This document shows positions 6,794 to 14,742 of a DNA stretch of 32,000 nt, piece by piece. The number at the start of each line of letters is the position of its first letter. The stretch's first letter is position 1. This DNA is from Vibrio alginolyticus NBRC 15630 = ATCC 17749 (lineage in GTDB: Bacteria > Pseudomonadota > Gammaproteobacteria > Enterobacterales > Vibrionaceae). Where the stretch lies: the NCBI RefSeq assembly GCF_000354175.2, contig NC_022359.1, forward strand, positions 420,001 to 452,000, given 5' to 3'. Below the pieces are notes generated by a model that saw nothing but the letters and a program-made list of their open reading frames with translations, did no database searches and was not told the origin of the DNA. Made by a program: the position numbers and the translations under genes.

Positions 6794-7768
6794 TTATTGC
6801 AGTTTGGTTTGTACAAACGCAAGAATCTCTTCCATTAAGCTGTCGTCAACTTTCTTCAAGTTCAACGCCAGGCTGCTACCTTTTCGGCTATAGCTTGCTC
6901 GACCTTTAACTAAGTCGACTTTTTCCGTCTTCTTACCAGGTTTTGCTGGTGCAAGTTCAGTAATCCAATTTTCGATGCTTTCCGTGACTTCTTTTGTCAG
7001 ACGAGCAACGCCTTGAGCTGTGCTTCGCTGCCATAAAAACCCTTCGCTAGAGCGACATTTATCTAACAGCTCTTGCTGCTGCTCTGGCGTTAGCGTTGAA
7101 AACTGTTTGTGCAGTTTCACGATTGTTGGGCGACCGAGATCGCCAACATTCGGATACGCTTGAAGCAGTTCTAACGGTAATGCTGCGGCTTTTAAAGCGC
7201 CACTTACCAACGCTTCACTGCACTGGAACATTTTTGCCAATGCTTTCTGATCCTCAGCTTCACCACTATCAAGCTTAGCCTGCATCTCTTTACCTTTTTC
7301 GTATAAAGAGAGCGGTTTGTGAGCATTTGCCACATCAGACAAAAACTTAGCATGGTCAGTATTGATGTTGTCAGCAACATAAACCAAAAAATCTTGTTCA
7401 GCGAGGATACAAGACATGCGACGACGGCTACCATCTAAAACTTCAATCTTGCCATCTTCAGTTCTACGACCCACCGCTGGATATTGTTGGCCACGCTCTT
7501 TGAGTGTGACTAAAACATCAGATAAAGCATGTTCGTTTAAGAACGATTGCTCACGAGCGTTATCAACAAATACTGTTGTTTCTGTCGCAACTTTATTTGC
7601 AGGAATACGCACAAGTTCAAACTGAACAATATTTTCACCTGCAACTGCTAGTTCAATCGTTTGAGCTTTCTCTTTTGCCGCAGTTTGCGCCTCTTGCGGA
7701 GTCACAACACGACGCTTATTCGTTTTGCCAAATAATTTCGCGTTTAATTCAGACGTTTTCAAAGCCAT
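6794..7768 (-). CDS. parB2: chromosome-2 partition protein ParB2
   Basis: 324 aa. ParB N-terminal box (KIEVLDGSRRR), located directly downstream of the ParA gene, next to an RctB-type origin and surrounded by parS2 sites. Confidence 0.9.
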   Translation of the reverse strand: MALKTSELNAKLFGKTNKRRVVTPQEAQTAAKEKAQTIELAVAGENIVQFELVRIPANKVATETTVFVDNAREQSFLNEHALSDVLVTLKERGQQYPAVGRRTEDGKIEVLDGSRRRMSCILAEQDFLVYVADNINTDHAKFLSDVANAHKPLSLYEKGKEMQAKLDSGEAEDQKALAKMFQCSEALVSGALKAAALPLELLQAYPNVGDLGRPTIVKLHKQFSTLTPEQQQELLDKCRSSEGFLWQRSTAQGVARLTKEVTESIENWITELAPAKPGKKTEKVDLVKGRASYSRKGSSLALNLKKVDDSLMEEILAFVQTKLQ

Positions 7769-7775
7769 TTACTTA

Positions 7776-8993
7776 TTACCCCTGATTCAATGACGGCCAA
7801 TTAGAGTGCAGCACACGCTCTAATTCCAGTGCGCTTTTATGAACAGCGTCTTGCGCGGTAGCTAGTGTCTTCTTACCGCCTTCAAAATCGCTTACTGTCA
7901 GATCAAATACTGTGCTGTAGGTATCGGCACAGGTTTCAAACGCACGGCTACGAGGAATAGTAGCCATCATAACTTGGTCACCTAGAAGATAGTTCATTTC
8001 AGTTAAAACAGAAACTTGCTTCTTATTGTCGTCCTCAAACATGGTTGGCATCAAGCGAACAAACTCAAGACCATTCCAGTCCTCCGGGAACATTTCATAT
8101 ACCGTAGGCAAATGCTGGAAGAAGTTTACTGTTGAAGCCCAGTCCAGACGCTTAGCCGCACAAGGAATGAGCAAGGCATTTGATGCATACATCGCATTCC
8201 ATACTAATGGGTCAACGTGTGGACCGGTATCAATCATAATGATATCGAAGTCATCAGCAATTTTATCAATCAGTTGCTCTTTCAGCAGACGGACGATATC
8301 GAGTGATGGGTCTTCAGATAGCGTTTGCCATGCTTCCGCATTAAACATCGCGTCTTCTGGAAACGCTGAAATCGACTTTAAGTTCGGATATTGCGTTGGC
8401 AGCAATACGTTTTTACGTAAAAATTCACTGTCAATTTCCACACCATCAGGCACGTTACCCAACATAATGTCTACCGCAGAATAGATATTATCATGCTCTG
8501 CCATGCTGATTTGCGGGTTGAGGAATAAACGTAGCGAGCCTTGTGGGTCTAAGTCGATTAAACAAATACGGTATCGTTTATCCAAATTTAGCGCTAAACA
8601 TGCCGCTAAATGAACCGCGGTCATTGATTTACCTGTACCGCCCTTTTGGTTCTGCACATTAATAATCCAAGGTTTGTTACCTGAATTCTTTTTACGCTCA
8701 TGAAATTTAGGCACTTCAGCCGCATCCATGAGCATGTGTGCTTCTTCTAACGTAATTGAATAATGATTCGCGTTGTTTTTAGTAAATTGATGCCCAGCGG
8801 CTTCCATTTTACCAATCGCGTCGTCGAGCTTACGGCGAGTTAGACCAGAACGGGTTTCCATCATCGCTTTCGACATTGGTGGGAAGTAGTTATCGCTTCG
8901 CTCTTCTAAAACAATTTCAATACGGTCAGCTTGAACCTGCTGAGTCAGCTCCGCTAACTCAAGAAGGTTTTCAATCGTTTTTTCTCTTTTCAT
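7776..8993 (-). CDS. parA2: chromosome-2 partition ATPase ParA2 (type Ia, with N-terminal DNA-binding extension)
   Basis: 405 aa. Deviant Walker A (NQKGGTGKS). The long N-terminal extension is typical of plasmid-like type Ia ParA. Lies 7 bp upstream of parB2. Confidence 0.9.
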   Translation of the reverse strand: MKREKTIENLLELAELTQQVQADRIEIVLEERSDNYFPPMSKAMMETRSGLTRRKLDDAIGKMEAAGHQFTKNNANHYSITLEEAHMLMDAAEVPKFHERKKNSGNKPWIINVQNQKGGTGKSMTAVHLAACLALNLDKRYRICLIDLDPQGSLRLFLNPQISMAEHDNIYSAVDIMLGNVPDGVEIDSEFLRKNVLLPTQYPNLKSISAFPEDAMFNAEAWQTLSEDPSLDIVRLLKEQLIDKIADDFDIIMIDTGPHVDPLVWNAMYASNALLIPCAAKRLDWASTVNFFQHLPTVYEMFPEDWNGLEFVRLMPTMFEDDNKKQVSVLTEMNYLLGDQVMMATIPRSRAFETCADTYSTVFDLTVSDFEGGKKTLATAQDAVHKSALELERVLHSNWPSLNQG

Positions 8994-9341: not shown

Positions 9342-9810
9342 TGATCATGTCTCCGAGCAAAATAGGGCAGTTCCAGCGAAACATCTATGGAAGTATGATC
9401 AAGGTATACTTATGATCATGCTTCCGTGTTAATAAACAAATCCGAAAGCATGATCATGGAAAAATTGAGCAGAGTACGGTGTAAACACGCAAATAAAATA
9501 AGATCCATTAGTCGGAAATATGATCAAGCCTTAAAATCTCTCGGAAGCATGAGTTTTCTTCTCTGATTTACGGTTGAGTGCAGACAGAATGGGGGATTGA
9601 GCAGAAATTGACGGTATAGAAGCCGGAACAATGAAATTGCTCAAGTTGCTATGATAAATCACACTCTCATGATCATGCTTCCTGTAAATAAGCAGAGACT
9701 AGGATTTACTTCTAAATATGAGCGACTTGAATGTATTTTAATCAGATGAGTGATATCTCATCAATATGGACGCCAGAACGATAGATATATTGGCTCTTGA
9801 TCATCGATCC
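9342..9810. repeat. seven RctB 12-mer-type iterons of the incII-like region, in mixed orientation
   Basis: Forward copies: 9342-9354 TGATCATGTCTCC, 9413-9425 TGATCATGCTTCC, 9670-9682 TGATCATGCTTCC, 9798-9810 TGATCATCGATCC. Reverse copies: 9389-9401 GGAAGTATGATCA, 9444-9456 GAAAGCATGATCA, 9514-9526 GGAAATATGATCA. A degenerate GATC-less copy GGAAGCATGAG lies at 9544-9553. Confidence 0.8.
9624..9662 (+). promoter_or_regulatory. candidate RctB 39-mer (incII-type), GATC-free
   Basis: CGGAACAATGAAATTGCTCAAGTTGCTATGATAAATCAC. Followed 8 bp later by a perfect iteron at 9670. Resembles the element at 9239. Confidence 0.45.
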
Positions 9811-9875
9811 GAGTATAAATAACATCACCAATGCACAATATAATCATCGTGAAGATCATTATTAAATACTGCATC

Positions 9876-9884
9876 TGTGGATAA
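9876..9884 (-). promoter_or_regulatory. DnaA box (perfect TTATCCACA on the minus strand)
   Basis: Plus strand reads TGTGGATAA, 16 bp left of the first of the six phased iterons. A single DnaA box at this edge is a known oriCII feature. Confidence 0.85.
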
Positions 9885-9899
9885 CCTGTAAAAACATCA

Positions 9900-10026
9900 T
9901 GATCATCGTTTCAAGACTCTTTTGATCATCTTTTCATAACCTTAATGATCATGCTTACGAATAAATATGATCATGCTTTCAGGTTATTGTTGATCATACT
10001 TTCAGACTTCTTATGATCATAGTTCC
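9900..10026 (+). repeat. six direct, phased RctB iterons (12-mers) of the minimal origin
   Basis: TGATCATCGTTTC (9900), TGATCATCTTTTC (9923), TGATCATGCTTAC (9946), TGATCATGCTTTC (9968), TGATCATACTTTC (9991), TGATCATAGTTCC (10014). Spacings are 23, 23, 22, 23 and 23 bp, about two helical turns. Each copy carries a Dam GATC site. Confidence 0.9.
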
Positions 10027-10231: not shown

Positions 10232-12202
10232 ATGACGGCTGATGAAAAAATTCTGATTAAAGCACCGAGAAGCCACAAAGATGGCCATCTTTTTGAGGTA
10301 CATGAATCCTCTGCGGATTGGGTAGAGCAGTACCAACATTTCAAAGGGGTGACCAAAAGCATCTTAGAGTTGCTTAATCTGATCTCATTACGAGGCTTCA
10401 GCAGCAAGGATGGTTTGGTTTCAACCACAGAGATTGTGGAAGCAACAGATGGGCAACTCACACGTGCAGCCTTGCAACAACGTTTGCGCGCGGCAGTAAA
10501 TATTGGTTTATTTACTCAAACTCCAGTGCGTTTTGAAGAGGGACTTGCTGGTAAAACGATGCTACATAAATTTGTGAATCCCAATCAGCTTATATCTGTG
10601 TTGGGAGCAACAAGTCTTGTTACCGACAAAGTTCGCCAGAACGAAAAACAAAAACGTTCGAAAGCATTGGCTCAGACTCAAGTAAACAAACGTTTGTTGA
10701 ATGAGCACGGGTTAAACACACCTCCCACGATGAAAGATGAAGCCGATCAATTTGTTGTATCTCCAACAAATTGGGCTGGGATCATTGACCAAGCACTTGC
10801 GCCACCAAGAACTCGAAAAAGTTATCAGAAATCCATGGTGTCGATCTCTGGCACAAAAGCCGTTATTGAGACGCGATCATCCAAAAATATCATGACTGTG
10901 GATGATCTCATGACCCTGTTCGCTCTCTTCACGTTAACGGTTCAGTATCATGATCATCACAAAGATCAGTATCAGCTTGATGCTGCTCACGTACCAAACA
11001 AAACGCCGCTATACATCACTGATATTTTGTCGCTCAGAGGCAAAAAAGACAGTGGCCCAGCTCGTGATTCCATTCGCGATAGCATTGATCGCATTGAATT
11101 CACTGATTTTCAGCTCCATGAACTTACTGGACGTTGGCTAAGTGAAAACATGCCAGAGGGCTTCAAAAGTGATCGTTTTCGTTTTCTTGCTCGAACCATC
11201 ACAGCCTCTGAAGAGGCACCAGTGGAGGGAAGCGATGGTGAAATTCGTATCAAGCCAAACTTATATATTTTAGTTTGGGAACCTTCGTTTTATGAAGAGC
11301 TGTTAACGCGCGATTATTTCTTCTTGTTCCCACCAGAAATCCTGAAACAGCATACGTTGGTGTTCCAGCTGTATTCGTTTTTCCGTAGCCGTATGGTGCG
11401 CCGACACACAGATTGCATGCTGTTGAGCGAGTTAAATCAGAAGCTTGCACGTAACATTGAATGGCGTCGGTTCTCAATGGATCTGATCCGTGAGCTGAAA
11501 CGCTTGTCAGACGGCAAAGGGACAGACGATCTTTTTGTGGTGAACTTATGGGGCTATCACTTAACGATCGAAACTATGATCGAGAATGATAAAGTGATGG
11601 ATTACCAGATCGACATCAAATGTGACGTCGAAGAGGTGCTGCGTTACTCACGTGCTCGTACAACCAACGCAGGCAAGCGCAACATGGCGCCTACGCTGCC
11701 AAACCCGCTTCGTAATGAGATGGTAACCCGACAGCAGCTTGAGGAGCTCTCAGGCATCATAGACGGCGAATTTGAGCCCATTCAACGCAAAGCACCGTCT
11801 CCAAGAGGAAATTTAGGGCGACGCGTGAAGCAAAGAAAACATTTGGTAGAGATCAATGCTGATGAGATCACCATTACTCTATCTAAATATACCTCACCAG
11901 AGGCTCTAGAACGCAGTATAACGGCTTTATCTGCGATGACAGGGCACTCGTATGCCTCAATCAAAGAAGAGTGCTCAGATTACATAGAGAAGCTCGATTG
12001 GCTAAGGGTAGGGGATGAGCCGATTCCTTATGAGACATTAAGTAAAACCGTCGAGCTGTTTAACACCCAGAACGATGTCAAGCATCTTACCATCGAGCGC
12101 TTGATTGCGGGGTTAGCGGTGCGTCGGAAAGTTTGTCGTCAAATCTTCGATGGTCACATGGATGAAATGGTATTTCGTGCCTTGGATGAAATGGCGATTT
12201 AA
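10232..12202 (+). CDS. rctB: chromosome-2 replication initiator RctB
   Basis: 656 aa, which matches my recollection of V. cholerae RctB (about 658 aa). Placement directly right of the iteron/AT-rich origin and opposite parAB2 is diagnostic of Vibrionaceae chromosome 2. Confidence 0.92.
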   Translation: MTADEKILIKAPRSHKDGHLFEVHESSADWVEQYQHFKGVTKSILELLNLISLRGFSSKDGLVSTTEIVEATDGQLTRAALQQRLRAAVNIGLFTQTPVRFEEGLAGKTMLHKFVNPNQLISVLGATSLVTDKVRQNEKQKRSKALAQTQVNKRLLNEHGLNTPPTMKDEADQFVVSPTNWAGIIDQALAPPRTRKSYQKSMVSISGTKAVIETRSSKNIMTVDDLMTLFALFTLTVQYHDHHKDQYQLDAAHVPNKTPLYITDILSLRGKKDSGPARDSIRDSIDRIEFTDFQLHELTGRWLSENMPEGFKSDRFRFLARTITASEEAPVEGSDGEIRIKPNLYILVWEPSFYEELLTRDYFFLFPPEILKQHTLVFQLYSFFRSRMVRRHTDCMLLSELNQKLARNIEWRRFSMDLIRELKRLSDGKGTDDLFVVNLWGYHLTIETMIENDKVMDYQIDIKCDVEEVLRYSRARTTNAGKRNMAPTLPNPLRNEMVTRQQLEELSGIIDGEFEPIQRKAPSPRGNLGRRVKQRKHLVEINADEITITLSKYTSPEALERSITALSAMTGHSYASIKEECSDYIEKLDWLRVGDEPIPYETLSKTVELFNTQNDVKHLTIERLIAGLAVRRKVCRQIFDGHMDEMVFRALDEMAI

Positions 12203-12417
12203 AAATGTCGCTTGATGTGTATCAAGCTATAGGTGTGATGTATCGGTTTGAAATGTAACAATGTCTTTCGATGATAAAAAACAGACTTAACTCTTACAAA
12301 CCACTGACATTAGAAGCCAAGCCTAATACTACTATTTATCCCGAATAGACAACCTTTTGTCCTTTCTGATGATTAATAGATTGGCTCATATTGTTACATT
12401 CATTCTGAATAGACTTC

Positions 12418-12450
12418 GCGAGTTTCTCCTCAGGAAACTCGCTTTTTTTT
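12418..12450 (+). terminator. strong Rho-independent terminator about 215 nt downstream of the rctB stop
   Basis: GCGAGTTTC (12418-12426) pairs with GAAACTCGC (12434-12442) around a 7-nt loop, followed by T8 (12443-12450). Confidence 0.85.
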
Positions 12451-12475
12451 ACCTAAAATTCCGCTAATTAAGCCT

Positions 12476-12488
12476 TGATCATTTTTCC
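12476..12488 (+). promoter_or_regulatory. ectopic iteron-like 13-mer downstream of rctB
   Basis: TGATCATTTTTCC, preceded by CCT. Same motif and orientation as the minimal-origin iterons. Confidence 0.5.
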
Positions 12489-12491
12489 GGA

Positions 12492-12959
12492 CTAATGAGG
12501 CAAACCTTGATCATGCTTCTTAGGTTCATTCCAATGTAATGAACGCATCAACGCAACATGTGATTCGATTAAGCTATGGGCTTGTTCCTGCCACTTGTTT
12601 TGATCACACTGCTGATTACAAAACTCTAACGCCACAACGGTGAGATGCTGAAGTCGTCTCAAACACCAATCTTTGATCAGAATATCAGTCGAGACTTGGC
12701 ATGCTGCTTGTTCAAGCTTTGCACTCGTATAAAGCAAAGTTTGATATGCTTTCTGAGGGTCTTGGTACCTTGCATGTTGAAACACGCGTAAACATCCATC
12801 CAACCAGCAAGCAATCGCTTTACTTTGAAGATCACTCAATTCGGGTCCAAACACGTCATCAGGCACCTGATATAAGATCGTTTCCAATTTTTCTACTTGA
12901 TCATGTTTCCGCTGTTCGTACCACATGGCGATTTGATCTTGCCAAGTACTCAAATCCAT
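12492..12959 (-). CDS. hypothetical protein (predicted all-helical, Cys/Trp/Gln-rich), translationally coupled to the upstream ABC ATPase gene
   Basis: 155-aa ORF. Its ATG overlaps the TAA of the preceding gene (TAATG, shared A at 12959). I recognise no family. Confidence 0.55.
   Translation of the reverse strand: MDLSTWQDQIAMWYEQRKHDQVEKLETILYQVPDDVFGPELSDLQSKAIACWLDGCLRVFQHARYQDPQKAYQTLLYTSAKLEQAACQVSTDILIKDWCLRRLQHLTVVALEFCNQQCDQNKWQEQAHSLIESHVALMRSLHWNEPKKHDQGLPH
12508..12520 (+). promoter_or_regulatory. ectopic iteron-like 13-mer in the 3' end of the 155-aa ORF
   Basis: TGATCATGCTTCT, preceded by CCT. Lies 32 bp from the copy at 12476. Confidence 0.5.
12898..12910 (+). promoter_or_regulatory. 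ectopic iteron-like 13-mer in the 5' part of the 155-aa ORF
   Basis: TGATCATGTTTCC, a full match to the origin consensus TGATCATNNTTYC. Confidence 0.5.
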
Positions 12960-13891
12960 TACGCTGCCTCAGTCCATTGTTTTACATAGTGATTTGGTCC
13001 TATTTGATCAAATTCGTCGACAATTATGCTGCTACGTTGACGAATTTCATCGGCATCTATCGAATAGTTTGGTTCATTTTTCACTAAGTTACCAAAAGGT
13101 AAGTCAGGATCAGGAACGGCAGAAATCAACAGCTTAGTATAAGGATGCTGCGGATTCTTAAGTATTGAATGCGTGTCGCCCCATTCAACGATTTGCCCTT
13201 TGTACATTACTGCGGTTTCTTCCGCGATGTAGTGCGCAGTCGCCAGATCATGAGTGATGTATAAAAAACCAATTCCCAGTTCTTGCTTCATTCGTTGCAT
13301 TAAATTCAACACTCCCAAGCGAATAGAAACATCCAGCATAGACGTAGGCTCATCCGCAAGAATGATTTGCGAACCTACCGCTAAAGCCCTTGCTAAGTTT
13401 ACTCGCTGACGTTGCCCACCACTGAGTTCGTGAGGGAACTTATTCAATGTCTCTTCAGGTAGTTCCACCAGCTTTAGGAGCTCTTCCAAGCGGGCTGGGA
13501 TGTCGCGCTCGTTTTTGACTTGTTTATGAATTTTTAAAGGACGTGTTAGGTGATGGCGAATGGTATGAGTTGGATTGAGAGAGCCAAACGGATCTTGAAA
13601 CACCATTTGTACTTTACTGCGATATTCTTGTAGAGCCGATCGTGACGTGATCTCATTTATGTCAGTGCCATTGAAAAGGATCTCGCCTTCCGTTGCAGGA
13701 TAGACTTTGGTTATTAAGCGAGCGCAAGTACTCTTACCGCAGCCTGACTCTCCAACCAAAGCCAAGGTTTTTCCTGCGTACAGATCAAAAGTCACTCCTT
13801 GAAGCGCACGAAAGGTTTCCTCTTTCGCTAAACCACCGCCCACTTTGAATTCTTTAATCACATTTTTCATTTGGATGATAGGTTGACTCAT
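12959..13891 (-). CDS. ABC transporter ATP-binding protein, Dpp/Opp (DppF/OppF-like) family
   Basis: 310 aa. Walker A GESGCGKST, signature LSGGQRQR, Walker B ILADEPTSMLD and a C-terminal oligopeptide-type extension (NPQHPYTKLL). An AAGGAG RBS sits in the end of the upstream gene. Confidence 0.85.
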   Translation of the reverse strand: MSQPIIQMKNVIKEFKVGGGLAKEETFRALQGVTFDLYAGKTLALVGESGCGKSTCARLITKVYPATEGEILFNGTDINEITSRSALQEYRSKVQMVFQDPFGSLNPTHTIRHHLTRPLKIHKQVKNERDIPARLEELLKLVELPEETLNKFPHELSGGQRQRVNLARALAVGSQIILADEPTSMLDVSIRLGVLNLMQRMKQELGIGFLYITHDLATAHYIAEETAVMYKGQIVEWGDTHSILKNPQHPYTKLLISAVPDPDLPFGNLVKNEPNYSIDADEIRQRSSIIVDEFDQIGPNHYVKQWTEAA

Positions 13892-13893
13892 GG

Positions 13894-14742
13894 TTACGCT
13901 CCTTGTAACTCTGGTTGTTTGTGGACGTCATGGATGTTTGGGAAAGAAGCCCATAGCTTTTGCGTGTAAGGGTGTTGAGGATGATTGCGTATATCGTATG
14001 CTCGATTGACTTCGACGATTTCTCCGTGACGCATGATTGCAATTCGATCACATAGTTGGCTCATGAGTGCCAGGTCATGAGTGATAAAGAGGACTGAAAA
14101 ACCGAACTCATCTCTAAGCTGATAAATTTGCTGTAAAATTTCTCGCTGTACCACTACATCTAATGCTGTTGTGGGTTCATCCATAATGATCAGTTTTGGA
14201 TTTAGAGACAAAGCAATGGCTATCACCAACCGCTGACGCATTCCTCCTGAAAATTGGTGAGGATATTCTGCTAAGCGTTCTCGAGGAATATTGACCAAGT
14301 CCAACAACTTTTCTGCTCTATCTTTTGCTTGAGCGTTAGTGAGGCCTTGATGGTGTCGTAACACATCTGCAAATTGCTCTTGTATCGTTAAGACAGGGTT
14401 GAGTGAGTTCATCGCGCTCTGGAACACCATGGCGATTTCACTCCACCTTAGAGCGGTCAGTTCAGAGTCTGAGATACTAAGGATATCTTTGCCATCAAAC
14501 CATATTTTACCGCCAGAAATGAACGCTGGCGGCTTATGAAGACGATTTATTGAGAATGCAATTGTGCTTTTACCACATCCAGATTCACCGGCAAGACCAA
14601 ATACTTCGCCTTTGCCGATATCAAAGCTGACGGACTTTACCGCATTAAAATCACCATTATCAGTGATGTAATCGACGCACAAATCTCGGATCTGGATGAC
14701 CGGGTCATTGTGGTATGCATGACTTAAGTTAATACCATCCAT
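13894..14742 (-). CDS. ABC transporter ATP-binding protein, Dpp/Opp (DppD/OppD-like) family
   Basis: 282 aa. Walker A GESGCGKST, signature FSGGMRQR, Walker B IIMDEPTTALD and C-terminal NHPQHPYTQKL. It is the first gene of the operon, with no permease or binding-protein gene upstream. Confidence 0.85.
   Translation of the reverse strand: MDGINLSHAYHNDPVIQIRDLCVDYITDNGDFNAVKSVSFDIGKGEVFGLAGESGCGKSTIAFSINRLHKPPAFISGGKIWFDGKDILSISDSELTALRWSEIAMVFQSAMNSLNPVLTIQEQFADVLRHHQGLTNAQAKDRAEKLLDLVNIPRERLAEYPHQFSGGMRQRLVIAIALSLNPKLIIMDEPTTALDVVVQREILQQIYQLRDEFGFSVLFITHDLALMSQLCDRIAIMRHGEIVEVNRAYDIRNHPQHPYTQKLWASFPNIHDVHKQPELQGA

Follow-up and report, generated by a model that had tools for sequence, protein, structure and literature searches.

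Locus and iteron-like sites downstream of rctB

The stretch analysed here, 32,000 nucleotides of Vibrio alginolyticus NBRC 15630 = ATCC 17749 and referred to below as the window, represents the replication-origin region of a Vibrio (Harveyi-clade) chromosome 2. Its gene order is parAB2, the incII/ori2 iterons, rctB, which encodes the chromosome-2 replication initiator, the small RNA (sRNA) gene vadR, and a convergent gene for a 155-amino-acid (155-aa) protein of the vca0003 family (Table 1). We focused on three sequences resembling origin iterons to the right of rctB, the first of which starts 274 bp after the rctB stop codon. The initial annotation had described these as three motifs in one orientation, each preceded by CTT, and reading of the window sequence confirmed them as TGATCATTTTTCC at 12476 (site C), TGATCATGCTTCT at 12508 (site B), and TGATCATGTTTCC at 12898 (site A), all on the plus strand with CTT directly before each. 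All three carry the invariant TGATCA core with a Dam GATC site. As that annotation had stated, two of them (sites B and A) lie inside the 155-aa open reading frame (ORF), and site C is located 4 bp past the stop codon of this ORF and ∼25 bp after the vadR terminator.

In a pattern scan of the window, TGATCATNNTTYC had 12 exact matches compared to 0.08 expected, a number reached in 0/100 shuffles. Ten of these matches were in the origin region (9389–10026), and the only two elsewhere in the window were those at 12476 and 12898. When one mismatch was allowed, the site at 12508 joined them, and the only other non-origin matches, at 11570 and 28772, both lacked the GATC core. The TGATCA core itself was found six times between 12476 and 13010 (at 12476, 12508, 12601, 12674, 12898, and 13005), and just seven times in the ∼30 kb outside the origin and this short stretch. 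The cores at 12601 and 12674 lacked the TNNTTYC half of the motif; the latter is shared with V. diabolicus (locus L001), and neither is broadly conserved. The TGATCA at 13005 was considered as a fourth site, given that the same offset recurs in a number of loci, but its status was left uncertain, as it falls outside the core cluster and its Asp codon was present in only 39% of orthologues. TTACGG/CCGTAA, the 39-mer-like sequence, did not occur between 9568 and 15737, and no 39-mer partner was found near the cluster.

Class of the downstream sites and match to bound V. cholerae iterons

The ori2 iterons of the window served as the reference set for classing the sites downstream of rctB, and a class profile was built from all sites in 81 loci that had the complete TGATCA core and no more than one mismatch. 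While the ori-min repeats (n = 474) had C at position -2 in 14% and T at position -1 in 31% of cases, these values were 93 and 72% in the inc-region sites (n = 483) and 92% at both positions in the sites downstream of rctB (n = 230). The inc-region and downstream groups also had in common a C at the Y position and a G after the motif. The mark of the inc class is CTT directly 5' of GATCA (complement ATGATCAAG), in place of which the ori-min repeats have an A/T-rich prefix, and the complement form ATGATCAAG... is also the form of the V. cholerae inc-region sites. Given that the CTT prefix is the signature of the regulatory class, the downstream sites are not copies of the six minimal-origin repeats with which the initial annotation had compared them, although the shared orientation that it reported does hold. 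By this sequence profile, the downstream sites are assigned to the regulatory inc class ("11-mer", CTTGATCAT), which by inference corresponds to the published 11-mers. These bind RctB, are confined to the negative-control region, and cannot take the place of 12-mers in initiation (Gerding et al., 2015).

The class assignment bears directly on the idea that the cluster could be an additional or backup origin of replication, or what is left of such an origin. Its iterons are oriented as in the ori-min array and are near the initiator gene, as such an origin might have them. However, the sites belong to the 11-mer class, which is unable to replace 12-mers for initiation (Gerding et al., 2015), and there are three of them over 435 bp, at 32 and 390 bp spacing, rather than six at 22–23 bp. 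They are placed in coding sequence, and neither an AT-rich unwinding element nor an array adjoins them, so that the hallmarks of an ori2-type origin (six head-to-tail 12-mers at 22–23 bp, an AT-rich unwinding element, and a DnaA box) were not found together here. A comparable iteron region in V. cholerae showed no origin activity, and the absence of the cluster from sister genera indicates that it is not ancestral. We therefore consider an origin function, past or present, extremely improbable.

In V. cholerae, TGATCA is the only fully conserved part of the 11 origin iterons (Baek and Chattoraj, 2014; PMC3937223, Table S1). Single 24-bp sites from this organism, ATGATCATGCTT, TTGATCATGCTT, ATGATCAAGGT, and ATGATCAAGTG, bound RctB in an electrophoretic mobility shift assay, and on a multicopy plasmid the same single sites decreased poriII copy number more than 10-fold, an effect partly relieved by extra RctB (PMC3937223). 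Site 12508 matched TTGATCATGCTT (chrII-6/-11) at 12/12 positions and its complement matched ATGATCAAGGT (chrII-5) at 11/11. The deviation that the initial annotation ascribed to this copy is real, being its sole mismatch to TGATCATNNTTYC, at position 13 of the 13-mer, but it falls outside the 12 bp that define the V. cholerae iteron, within which the site is perfect. Against the validated V. cholerae sites, site 12898 matched at 11/12 positions as a 12-mer and at 10/11 as an 11-mer in the complement, and site 12476 at 10/12 and, in the complement (ATGATCAAGGC, compared to chrII-5), at 10/11. All three sites fit the origin consensus of the window itself.

Conservation of the cluster across Vibrio

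We compared the rctB regions of 80 Vibrio species, taking a single locus from each together with 6 kb on either side. Exact motifs, which were absent from rctB, occurred at 6.8/kb in the origin and at 1.84/kb over the first 1.1 kb past rctB, while the rest of the sequence had 0.019/kb. This 1.1-kb segment contained one or more exact sites in 76 of the 80 loci; in the other four, the cluster was intact but had been pushed 3–6 kb away by inserted cargo, which in two species includes a thiamine operon, and the downstream cluster is thus carried by 80/80 Vibrio species. A chance or compositional artefact was ruled out by the shuffles and by the ∼100-fold enrichment across the 80 loci.

The layout of the cluster is recurrent, with site A at codon ∼19 and site B in the last codons of the 155-aa gene, site C intergenic, and all in the same orientation. 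Site A occupies the same codon position in most orthologues, most Vibrio loci have an orthologue of the intergenic site C, and in many species an inverted partner is found 15–19 bp from site C, as in the inc-region pair. Distances between same-orientation neighbours cluster at 32, 41–47, 52–55, and 62–65 bp. The best-fitting spacing period was 10.5–10.8 bp, with R = 0.63 (p ∼0.009) for the 14 distinct values and R = 0.75 for all 38 distances, the latter overstating the evidence given the shared ancestry of related species. Sites B, C and D, which are close to one another, are therefore spaced on one helix face.

V. cholerae has one downstream site only, CCTTGATCATCGTTCC, 260 bp past rctB, at an estimated 2.2–2.3 kb to the right of the ori2 summit, near 5.7 kb of CP028828.1 in the 3' end of vca0003. 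In the divergent Vibrio Of7-15, the intragenic sites are absent and two inc-class sites are present in intergenic DNA. Outside the genus, one Salinivibrio and two Photobacterium chromosome-2 records contained origin iterons of the usual kind, but neither the cluster nor a 155-aa homologue was found directly after rctB; one Photobacterium had a lone site 1.2 kb downstream of rctB. From this distribution, the cluster looks like a feature of the genus Vibrio. A remnant of the ancestral plasmid, that is, a true homologue of incA or incC, was also considered and is not supported, given that Salinivibrio and Photobacterium are without the cluster right after rctB.

As a GATC-rich patch next to ori2, the cluster might instead act mainly via Dam and SeqA and not RctB, extending the sequestered hemimethylated domain after initiation. 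Nine GATC sites occur between 12477 and 13006, which is at about the 95th percentile of 600-bp windows, and the 32 bp separating sites B and C is a distance that SeqA can bridge; hemimethylation of oriII is known to be prolonged by SeqA. On the other hand, the GATC enrichment is modest compared to that of the origin (16 per 600 bp), conservation spans the whole 16–17 bp inc-iteron motif (CCTTGATCATNNTTCCG) and not GATC alone, and SeqA would not account for the conserved orientation or the inverted-pair module. We consider it unlikely that SeqA explains the cluster, although roles of SeqA and RctB are compatible and not mutually exclusive.

The surroundings of the cluster vary in some species. 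In V. fluminensis and V. renipiscarius (loci L093 and L094, ∼10.9–16.5 kb), a ∼6-kb operon for thiamine salvage/biosynthesis and ABC transport separates vadR from the cluster; V. galatheae (L095) has different cargo at the same vadR/cluster junction, and three further loci (L021, L025, and L026) have 2–3 kb insertions there. This junction has apparently received insertions repeatedly.

Selection on DNA inside the 155-aa gene

The intragenic sites A and B are each read in the same frame as (R/K)-K-H-D-Q, site B as K-K-H-D-Q-G on the minus strand, and this peptide is kept in most homologues. The sites could accordingly be a coding by-product, in which a conserved K-H-D-Q peptide occurs twice and one chance intergenic match completes the cluster. 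We examined codon usage in a codon alignment of 66 orthologues, counting usage among sequences having the residue. The six motif codons (K18, H19, D20, Q21, D150, and Q151) had single-codon usage of 93–100%: 93–98% for the site A codons K18, H19, D20, and Q21, and 98–100% in site B, where D150 is GAT and Q151 is CAA. By comparison, the commonest codon accounted for 51–84% (mean 66%) at sixteen equally conserved two-codon residues elsewhere in the gene, and all six motif codons exceeded all sixteen comparison codons (Mann–Whitney p = 1.3e-5). Silent positions are thus fixed within the sites, unlike those of equally conserved residues of the same gene.

The protein and its relatives also argue against a coding explanation. 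In the AlphaFold model, residues 17–21 form the loop between helices 3–16 and 22–30 and residues 148–155 are disordered, which places the two peptides in a loop and a disordered tail. Both peptides are missing from homologues encoded away from rctB (two Aliivibrio contexts plus a third type of contig), nor do these genes contain a matching iteron. Moreover, the intergenic sites are conserved as well, and nine species have lost the gene yet kept one to three sites after vadR. A coding by-product is very improbable, being effectively refuted by the codon test, the gene-less loci, and the motif-less homologues elsewhere in the genome.

The sites are under purifying selection at the DNA level, with position and orientation constrained and nearby spacing phased. 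The 155-aa gene appears to have been co-opted to carry two sites, and the protein does not need the K-H-D-Q peptides. The initial annotation had argued that three such motifs so close together were no background effect and had pointed to conservation at orthologous loci as a check; both points are borne out by a similar cluster in 80/80 Vibrio species, by the fixed silent positions, and by the helical-phase spacing.

Neighbouring genes and transcription across the cluster

In 68/80 loci, rctB is followed by the 155-aa gene on the opposite strand. Its family is conserved across Vibrio and Aliivibrio, ∼0.3–6 kb downstream of rctB in most Vibrio examined, and the gene stays near rctB even where the ABC transporter genes are absent. 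None of the 106 homologues in the family had a Pfam domain, and the protein had no NCBIfam family and no sequence match in the PDB. Its AlphaFold model (predicted local distance difference test score of 89) is an all-helical bundle, for which a fold search against the PDB returned only weak 14-3-3-like matches (E ≥ 0.09). No domain was found to support the NCBI label "transcriptional regulator" for this protein. The two ATP-binding cassette (ABC) ATPase genes upstream of the 155-aa gene had DppF/OppD-like NCBIfam matches below threshold.

VadR has been described as an Hfq-dependent, VxrAB-activated sRNA of ∼85 nt, encoded on the plus strand between vca0002 (rctB) and vca0003 (PMC7695739), and from this published location the 155-aa gene can be assigned to the vca0003 family. 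We had considered a possible new sRNA in the conserved non-coding block that separates rctB from site C; this was ruled out, given that the block is the published VadR (PMC7695739). A near-invariant 5' block and a covarying terminator of vadR were present in 68/81 loci, and vadR separates rctB from the iteron cluster. Rfam release 15 contained no model detecting vadR. Some species have an inserted hairpin with compensatory changes in the vadR element.

The window RctB is 100% identical to that of V. diabolicus and 85% identical to that of V. cholerae. The 155-aa protein is only 88% identical to its V. diabolicus counterpart (locus L001), although RctB is 100% identical, and is 97% identical to a different "MULTISPECIES Vibrio" cluster. 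This discrepancy suggests either recombination at the junction or much faster evolution of the downstream gene.

Two weaker iteron-like sequences occur within rctB itself. The partial match at 10949–10963 on the plus strand, ATGATCATCACAAA, encodes H-D-H-H-K within the peptide QYHDHHKD, one of the most conserved RctB peptides, which is kept in V. cholerae, Salinivibrio, and Photobacterium; coding constraint suffices to explain this match, which the initial annotation had noted at 10951. A near-iteron, (C/G)CTTGATCAGCTTTCCG, is shared by Salinivibrio (L089, position 5003) and one Photobacterium (L092, position 4997) in the 3' part of rctB, ∼460 bp ahead of the stop codon, where Vibrio has no TGATCA. 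It could reflect coding constraint or be an intragenic RctB site.

A transcriptional role of the cluster has to be weighed against this gene arrangement. RctB bound at the sites could block read-through into antisense vadR/rctB, or could repress the 155-aa gene from codons 17–21 where this gene has its own promoter. A hairpin immediately 3' of the rctB stop codon (12210–12227) scores as a terminator on the minus strand only, indicating that transcripts of the 155-aa gene would cross vadR in antisense and stop at the end of rctB. Minus-strand transcription exits the 155-aa gene exactly at sites B and C, and this hairpin (12227–12210), beyond vadR, is the first terminator-like one on that strand. 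Additionally, RctB is a known autorepressor at the 29-mer, and while an ABC ATPase gene precedes the 155-aa gene in 51/69 loci, it does not in 18/69. Nevertheless, two V. cholerae genes whose promoters contain RctB sites responded minimally or not at all to RctB, and the authors of that study concluded that RctB controls no transcription but its own. The sites also persist in loci without the 155-aa gene, and the cluster survives a 6 kb cargo separation from vadR and rctB, which leaves it no role in protecting these two genes. A transcriptional role is therefore quite unlikely. The same holds for the suggestion in the initial annotation that RctB might control the downstream operon, given that the sites are at the 3' end of this operon, which is convergent with rctB, and that RctB had little or no transcriptional effect in V. 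cholerae.

Table 1. Coordinates of features in the window, in order of position.
Feature	Coordinates	Strand	Remarks
parB2	6794–7768	-	ORF
parA2	7776–8993	-	ORF; ParA-type domains
ori2	9342–10026		13 TGATCA-core repeats, laid out as incII plus six-repeat ori2-min
inc-region iterons	9342–9810	both orientations	
ori-min array	9900–10026		Six iterons, 22–23 bp spacing
rctB, chromosome-2 replication initiator gene	10232–12202	+	Pfam RctB_central (E 7e-219), HTH_55
vadR sRNA gene	12343–12450	+	Start coordinate inferred; Rho-independent terminator 12418–12450
Site C, predicted intergenic inc-class iteron CCTTGATCATTTTTCCGG	12473–12490	+	Exact match to TGATCATNNTTYC
155-aa gene, vca0003 family	12492–12959	-	Convergent with rctB; start overlaps stop of upstream ABC ATPase gene
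Site B, predicted iteron CCTTGATCATGCTTCTTA	12505–12522	+	Last codons of 155-aa gene; 32 bp from site C
Two bare TTGATCA cores in 155-aa gene	12601–12679		Status as weak sites uncertain
Site A, predicted iteron ACTTGATCATGTTTCCGC	12895–12912	+	Codons 17–21 (R-K-H-D-Q) of 155-aa gene; exact match
Two oligopeptide/dipeptide-type ABC transporter ATPase genes	12959–14742	-	Pfam ABC_tran, oligo_HPY
Bare TTGATCA core, 3' end of ABC ATPase gene	13005–13010		107 bp from site A; possibly a weak auxiliary site

Discussion

We found a cluster of three iterons to the right of rctB that is very probably a control element for chromosome-2 replication and not a product of chance. The three motifs are predicted to be inc-class RctB-binding iterons forming a conserved auxiliary control locus to the right of rctB–vadR, an interpretation that we hold to be fairly probable. 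The initial annotation knew of no described RctB sites in this position, and our literature search likewise turned up no description of them, although a mention in older incII papers in the Proceedings of the National Academy of Sciences is possible.

A close parallel is the datA-like locus of V. cholerae. Its sites chrII-1, -5, -6, -9, and -11 are likewise single TGATCA-core iterons outside ori2, several of them in coding sequence, and like the present cluster they are near enough to ori2 for early replication; the sequences TTGATCATGCTT, ATGATCAAGGT, and ATGATCAAGTG are essentially identical to the sites described here. These V. cholerae extra-origin iterons bind RctB and cut poriII copy number by titration (PMC3937223). 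However, the sites of that locus are scattered over 74 kb at a distance of ∼40 kb to the left of ori2 and include a 39-mer, whereas the present cluster is 0.3–0.7 kb past rctB on the right side, compact, phased, and without the 39-mer-like TTACGG, and in these respects it does not correspond to a datA-like locus. Judged by its sequence, the cluster belongs with the extra-origin RctB iterons, among which it stands out by its position to the right of rctB, its genus-wide conservation, and its embedding in a coding gene.

The inc region (ori2-inc/incII), with its 11-mers and 12+11-mer pair, contains sites of the same class (C at -2, CTTGATCAT...TTCCG) and shares with the downstream cluster an inverted-pair module with cores 15–19 bp apart. 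Its RctB sites are methylation-dependent and regulatory rather than initiating, and we propose the same role for the downstream sites. The inc region is non-coding; it separates parAB2/rctA from ori2-min and has 39-mers and parS2-B among its iterons. The downstream cluster, by contrast, lies across rctB from it, is partly intragenic, and has no 39-mer.

A third parallel is offered by plasmids. P1 incA and F incC are iteron control loci beyond the 3' end of the initiator gene, and this second iteron set keeps copy number down both by titrating the initiator and by handcuffing to, or looping with, the origin. The layout of origin iterons, initiator gene, and a second set of iterons for the plasmid's own initiator is common to the present locus, where iterons of the resident initiator are found beyond the 3' end of its gene not only in the window but also across Vibrio. 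The plasmid loci nevertheless consist of five to nine tightly packed, non-coding iterons that are part of the basic replicon, while the present locus has three to four dispersed sites, two of them in a gene and with an sRNA gene in between; a dense array of at least five non-coding iterons was not found, the window having three over 435 bp with two in coding sequence. The present cluster also differs in that it appears to be an acquisition of the genus Vibrio and not ancestral. A similarity of ori2 to F and P1 has been noted before (PMC8826520).

On comparative sequence evidence, we read this as a predicted auxiliary RctB-binding locus, specific to Vibrio and dependent on methylation, which would titrate RctB and probably form a loop with ori2. 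Iteron binding by RctB requires full Dam methylation, inc-region iterons titrate RctB and modulate 39-mer handcuffing, and RctB-bridged loops within ori2 have been visualised. Judging from V. cholerae biochemistry, fully methylated downstream sites would bind RctB, probably cooperatively. A replication fork leaving ori2, 2.3 kb away, would hemimethylate the sites seconds after initiation and release RctB, and after remethylation there would be twice as many sites holding the initiator, right beside the initiator gene. The net effect would most likely be a damping of ori2 firing by titration, to which RctB-mediated looping to the ori2 29/39-mers or iterons probably contributes, as for inc-region iterons. 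The phasing, fixed orientation, and inc-type inverted pair favour an organised complex over independent sinks. The overall effect is probably negative, as with every extra-origin iteron tested.

Several observations weigh against this interpretation. Inc-region iterons can also act positively, by restraining 39-mers, so the sign of the effect is uncertain. Salinivibrio and Photobacterium have no such cluster immediately past rctB, and it is therefore not essential to RctB-type replicons. It also tolerates displacement 2–6 kb from rctB, which argues against a strict requirement for adjacency. Finally, the V. cholerae RctB chromatin immunoprecipitation sequencing (ChIP-seq) peak table comprises ori2 and five other chromosome-2 regions, none of them at vca0003. 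This last point is weak, given that V. cholerae has one site there and that known titration iterons are only 2–3-fold enriched; in wild-type V. cholerae, even the six-iteron ori-min array is not visibly occupied in ChIP-seq, and the published ori2 ChIP views are 2 kb wide and are estimated not to reach the downstream site.

A more far-reaching version of the RctB-binding interpretation is tentative, and we offer it as a possibility: a right-hand control locus mirroring incII, from which an RctB-bridged loop to the 29/39-mers or iterons of ori2 would enclose rctB and vadR and help tune the timing or once-per-cycle fidelity of chromosome-2 initiation throughout the genus. Such a locus would have been overlooked because only one site is left in the model species V. 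cholerae and because neither mini-chrII constructs nor published ChIP views extend as far as the cluster. If this proved true, a vca0003-family gene would have been recruited to carry two initiator sites, a case of dual coding for a protein and a replication-control site.

Replication control of Vibrio chromosome 2 is the main model for how a domesticated plasmid becomes a chromosome that replicates once per cell cycle, and the map of initiator sites has so far come almost entirely from V. cholerae and from the region to the left of rctB. A cluster to the right of rctB, conserved genus-wide including its silent positions, would add a component to this map, and would explain the otherwise odd conservation of synteny among rctB, vadR, and vca0003. 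It may also influence minimal ori2 replicons and synthetic secondary chromosomes, depending on whether it is included in them. Finally, the locus provides a testable case of a replication-control site within coding sequence, since synonymous recoding would remove the sites and leave the protein unchanged.

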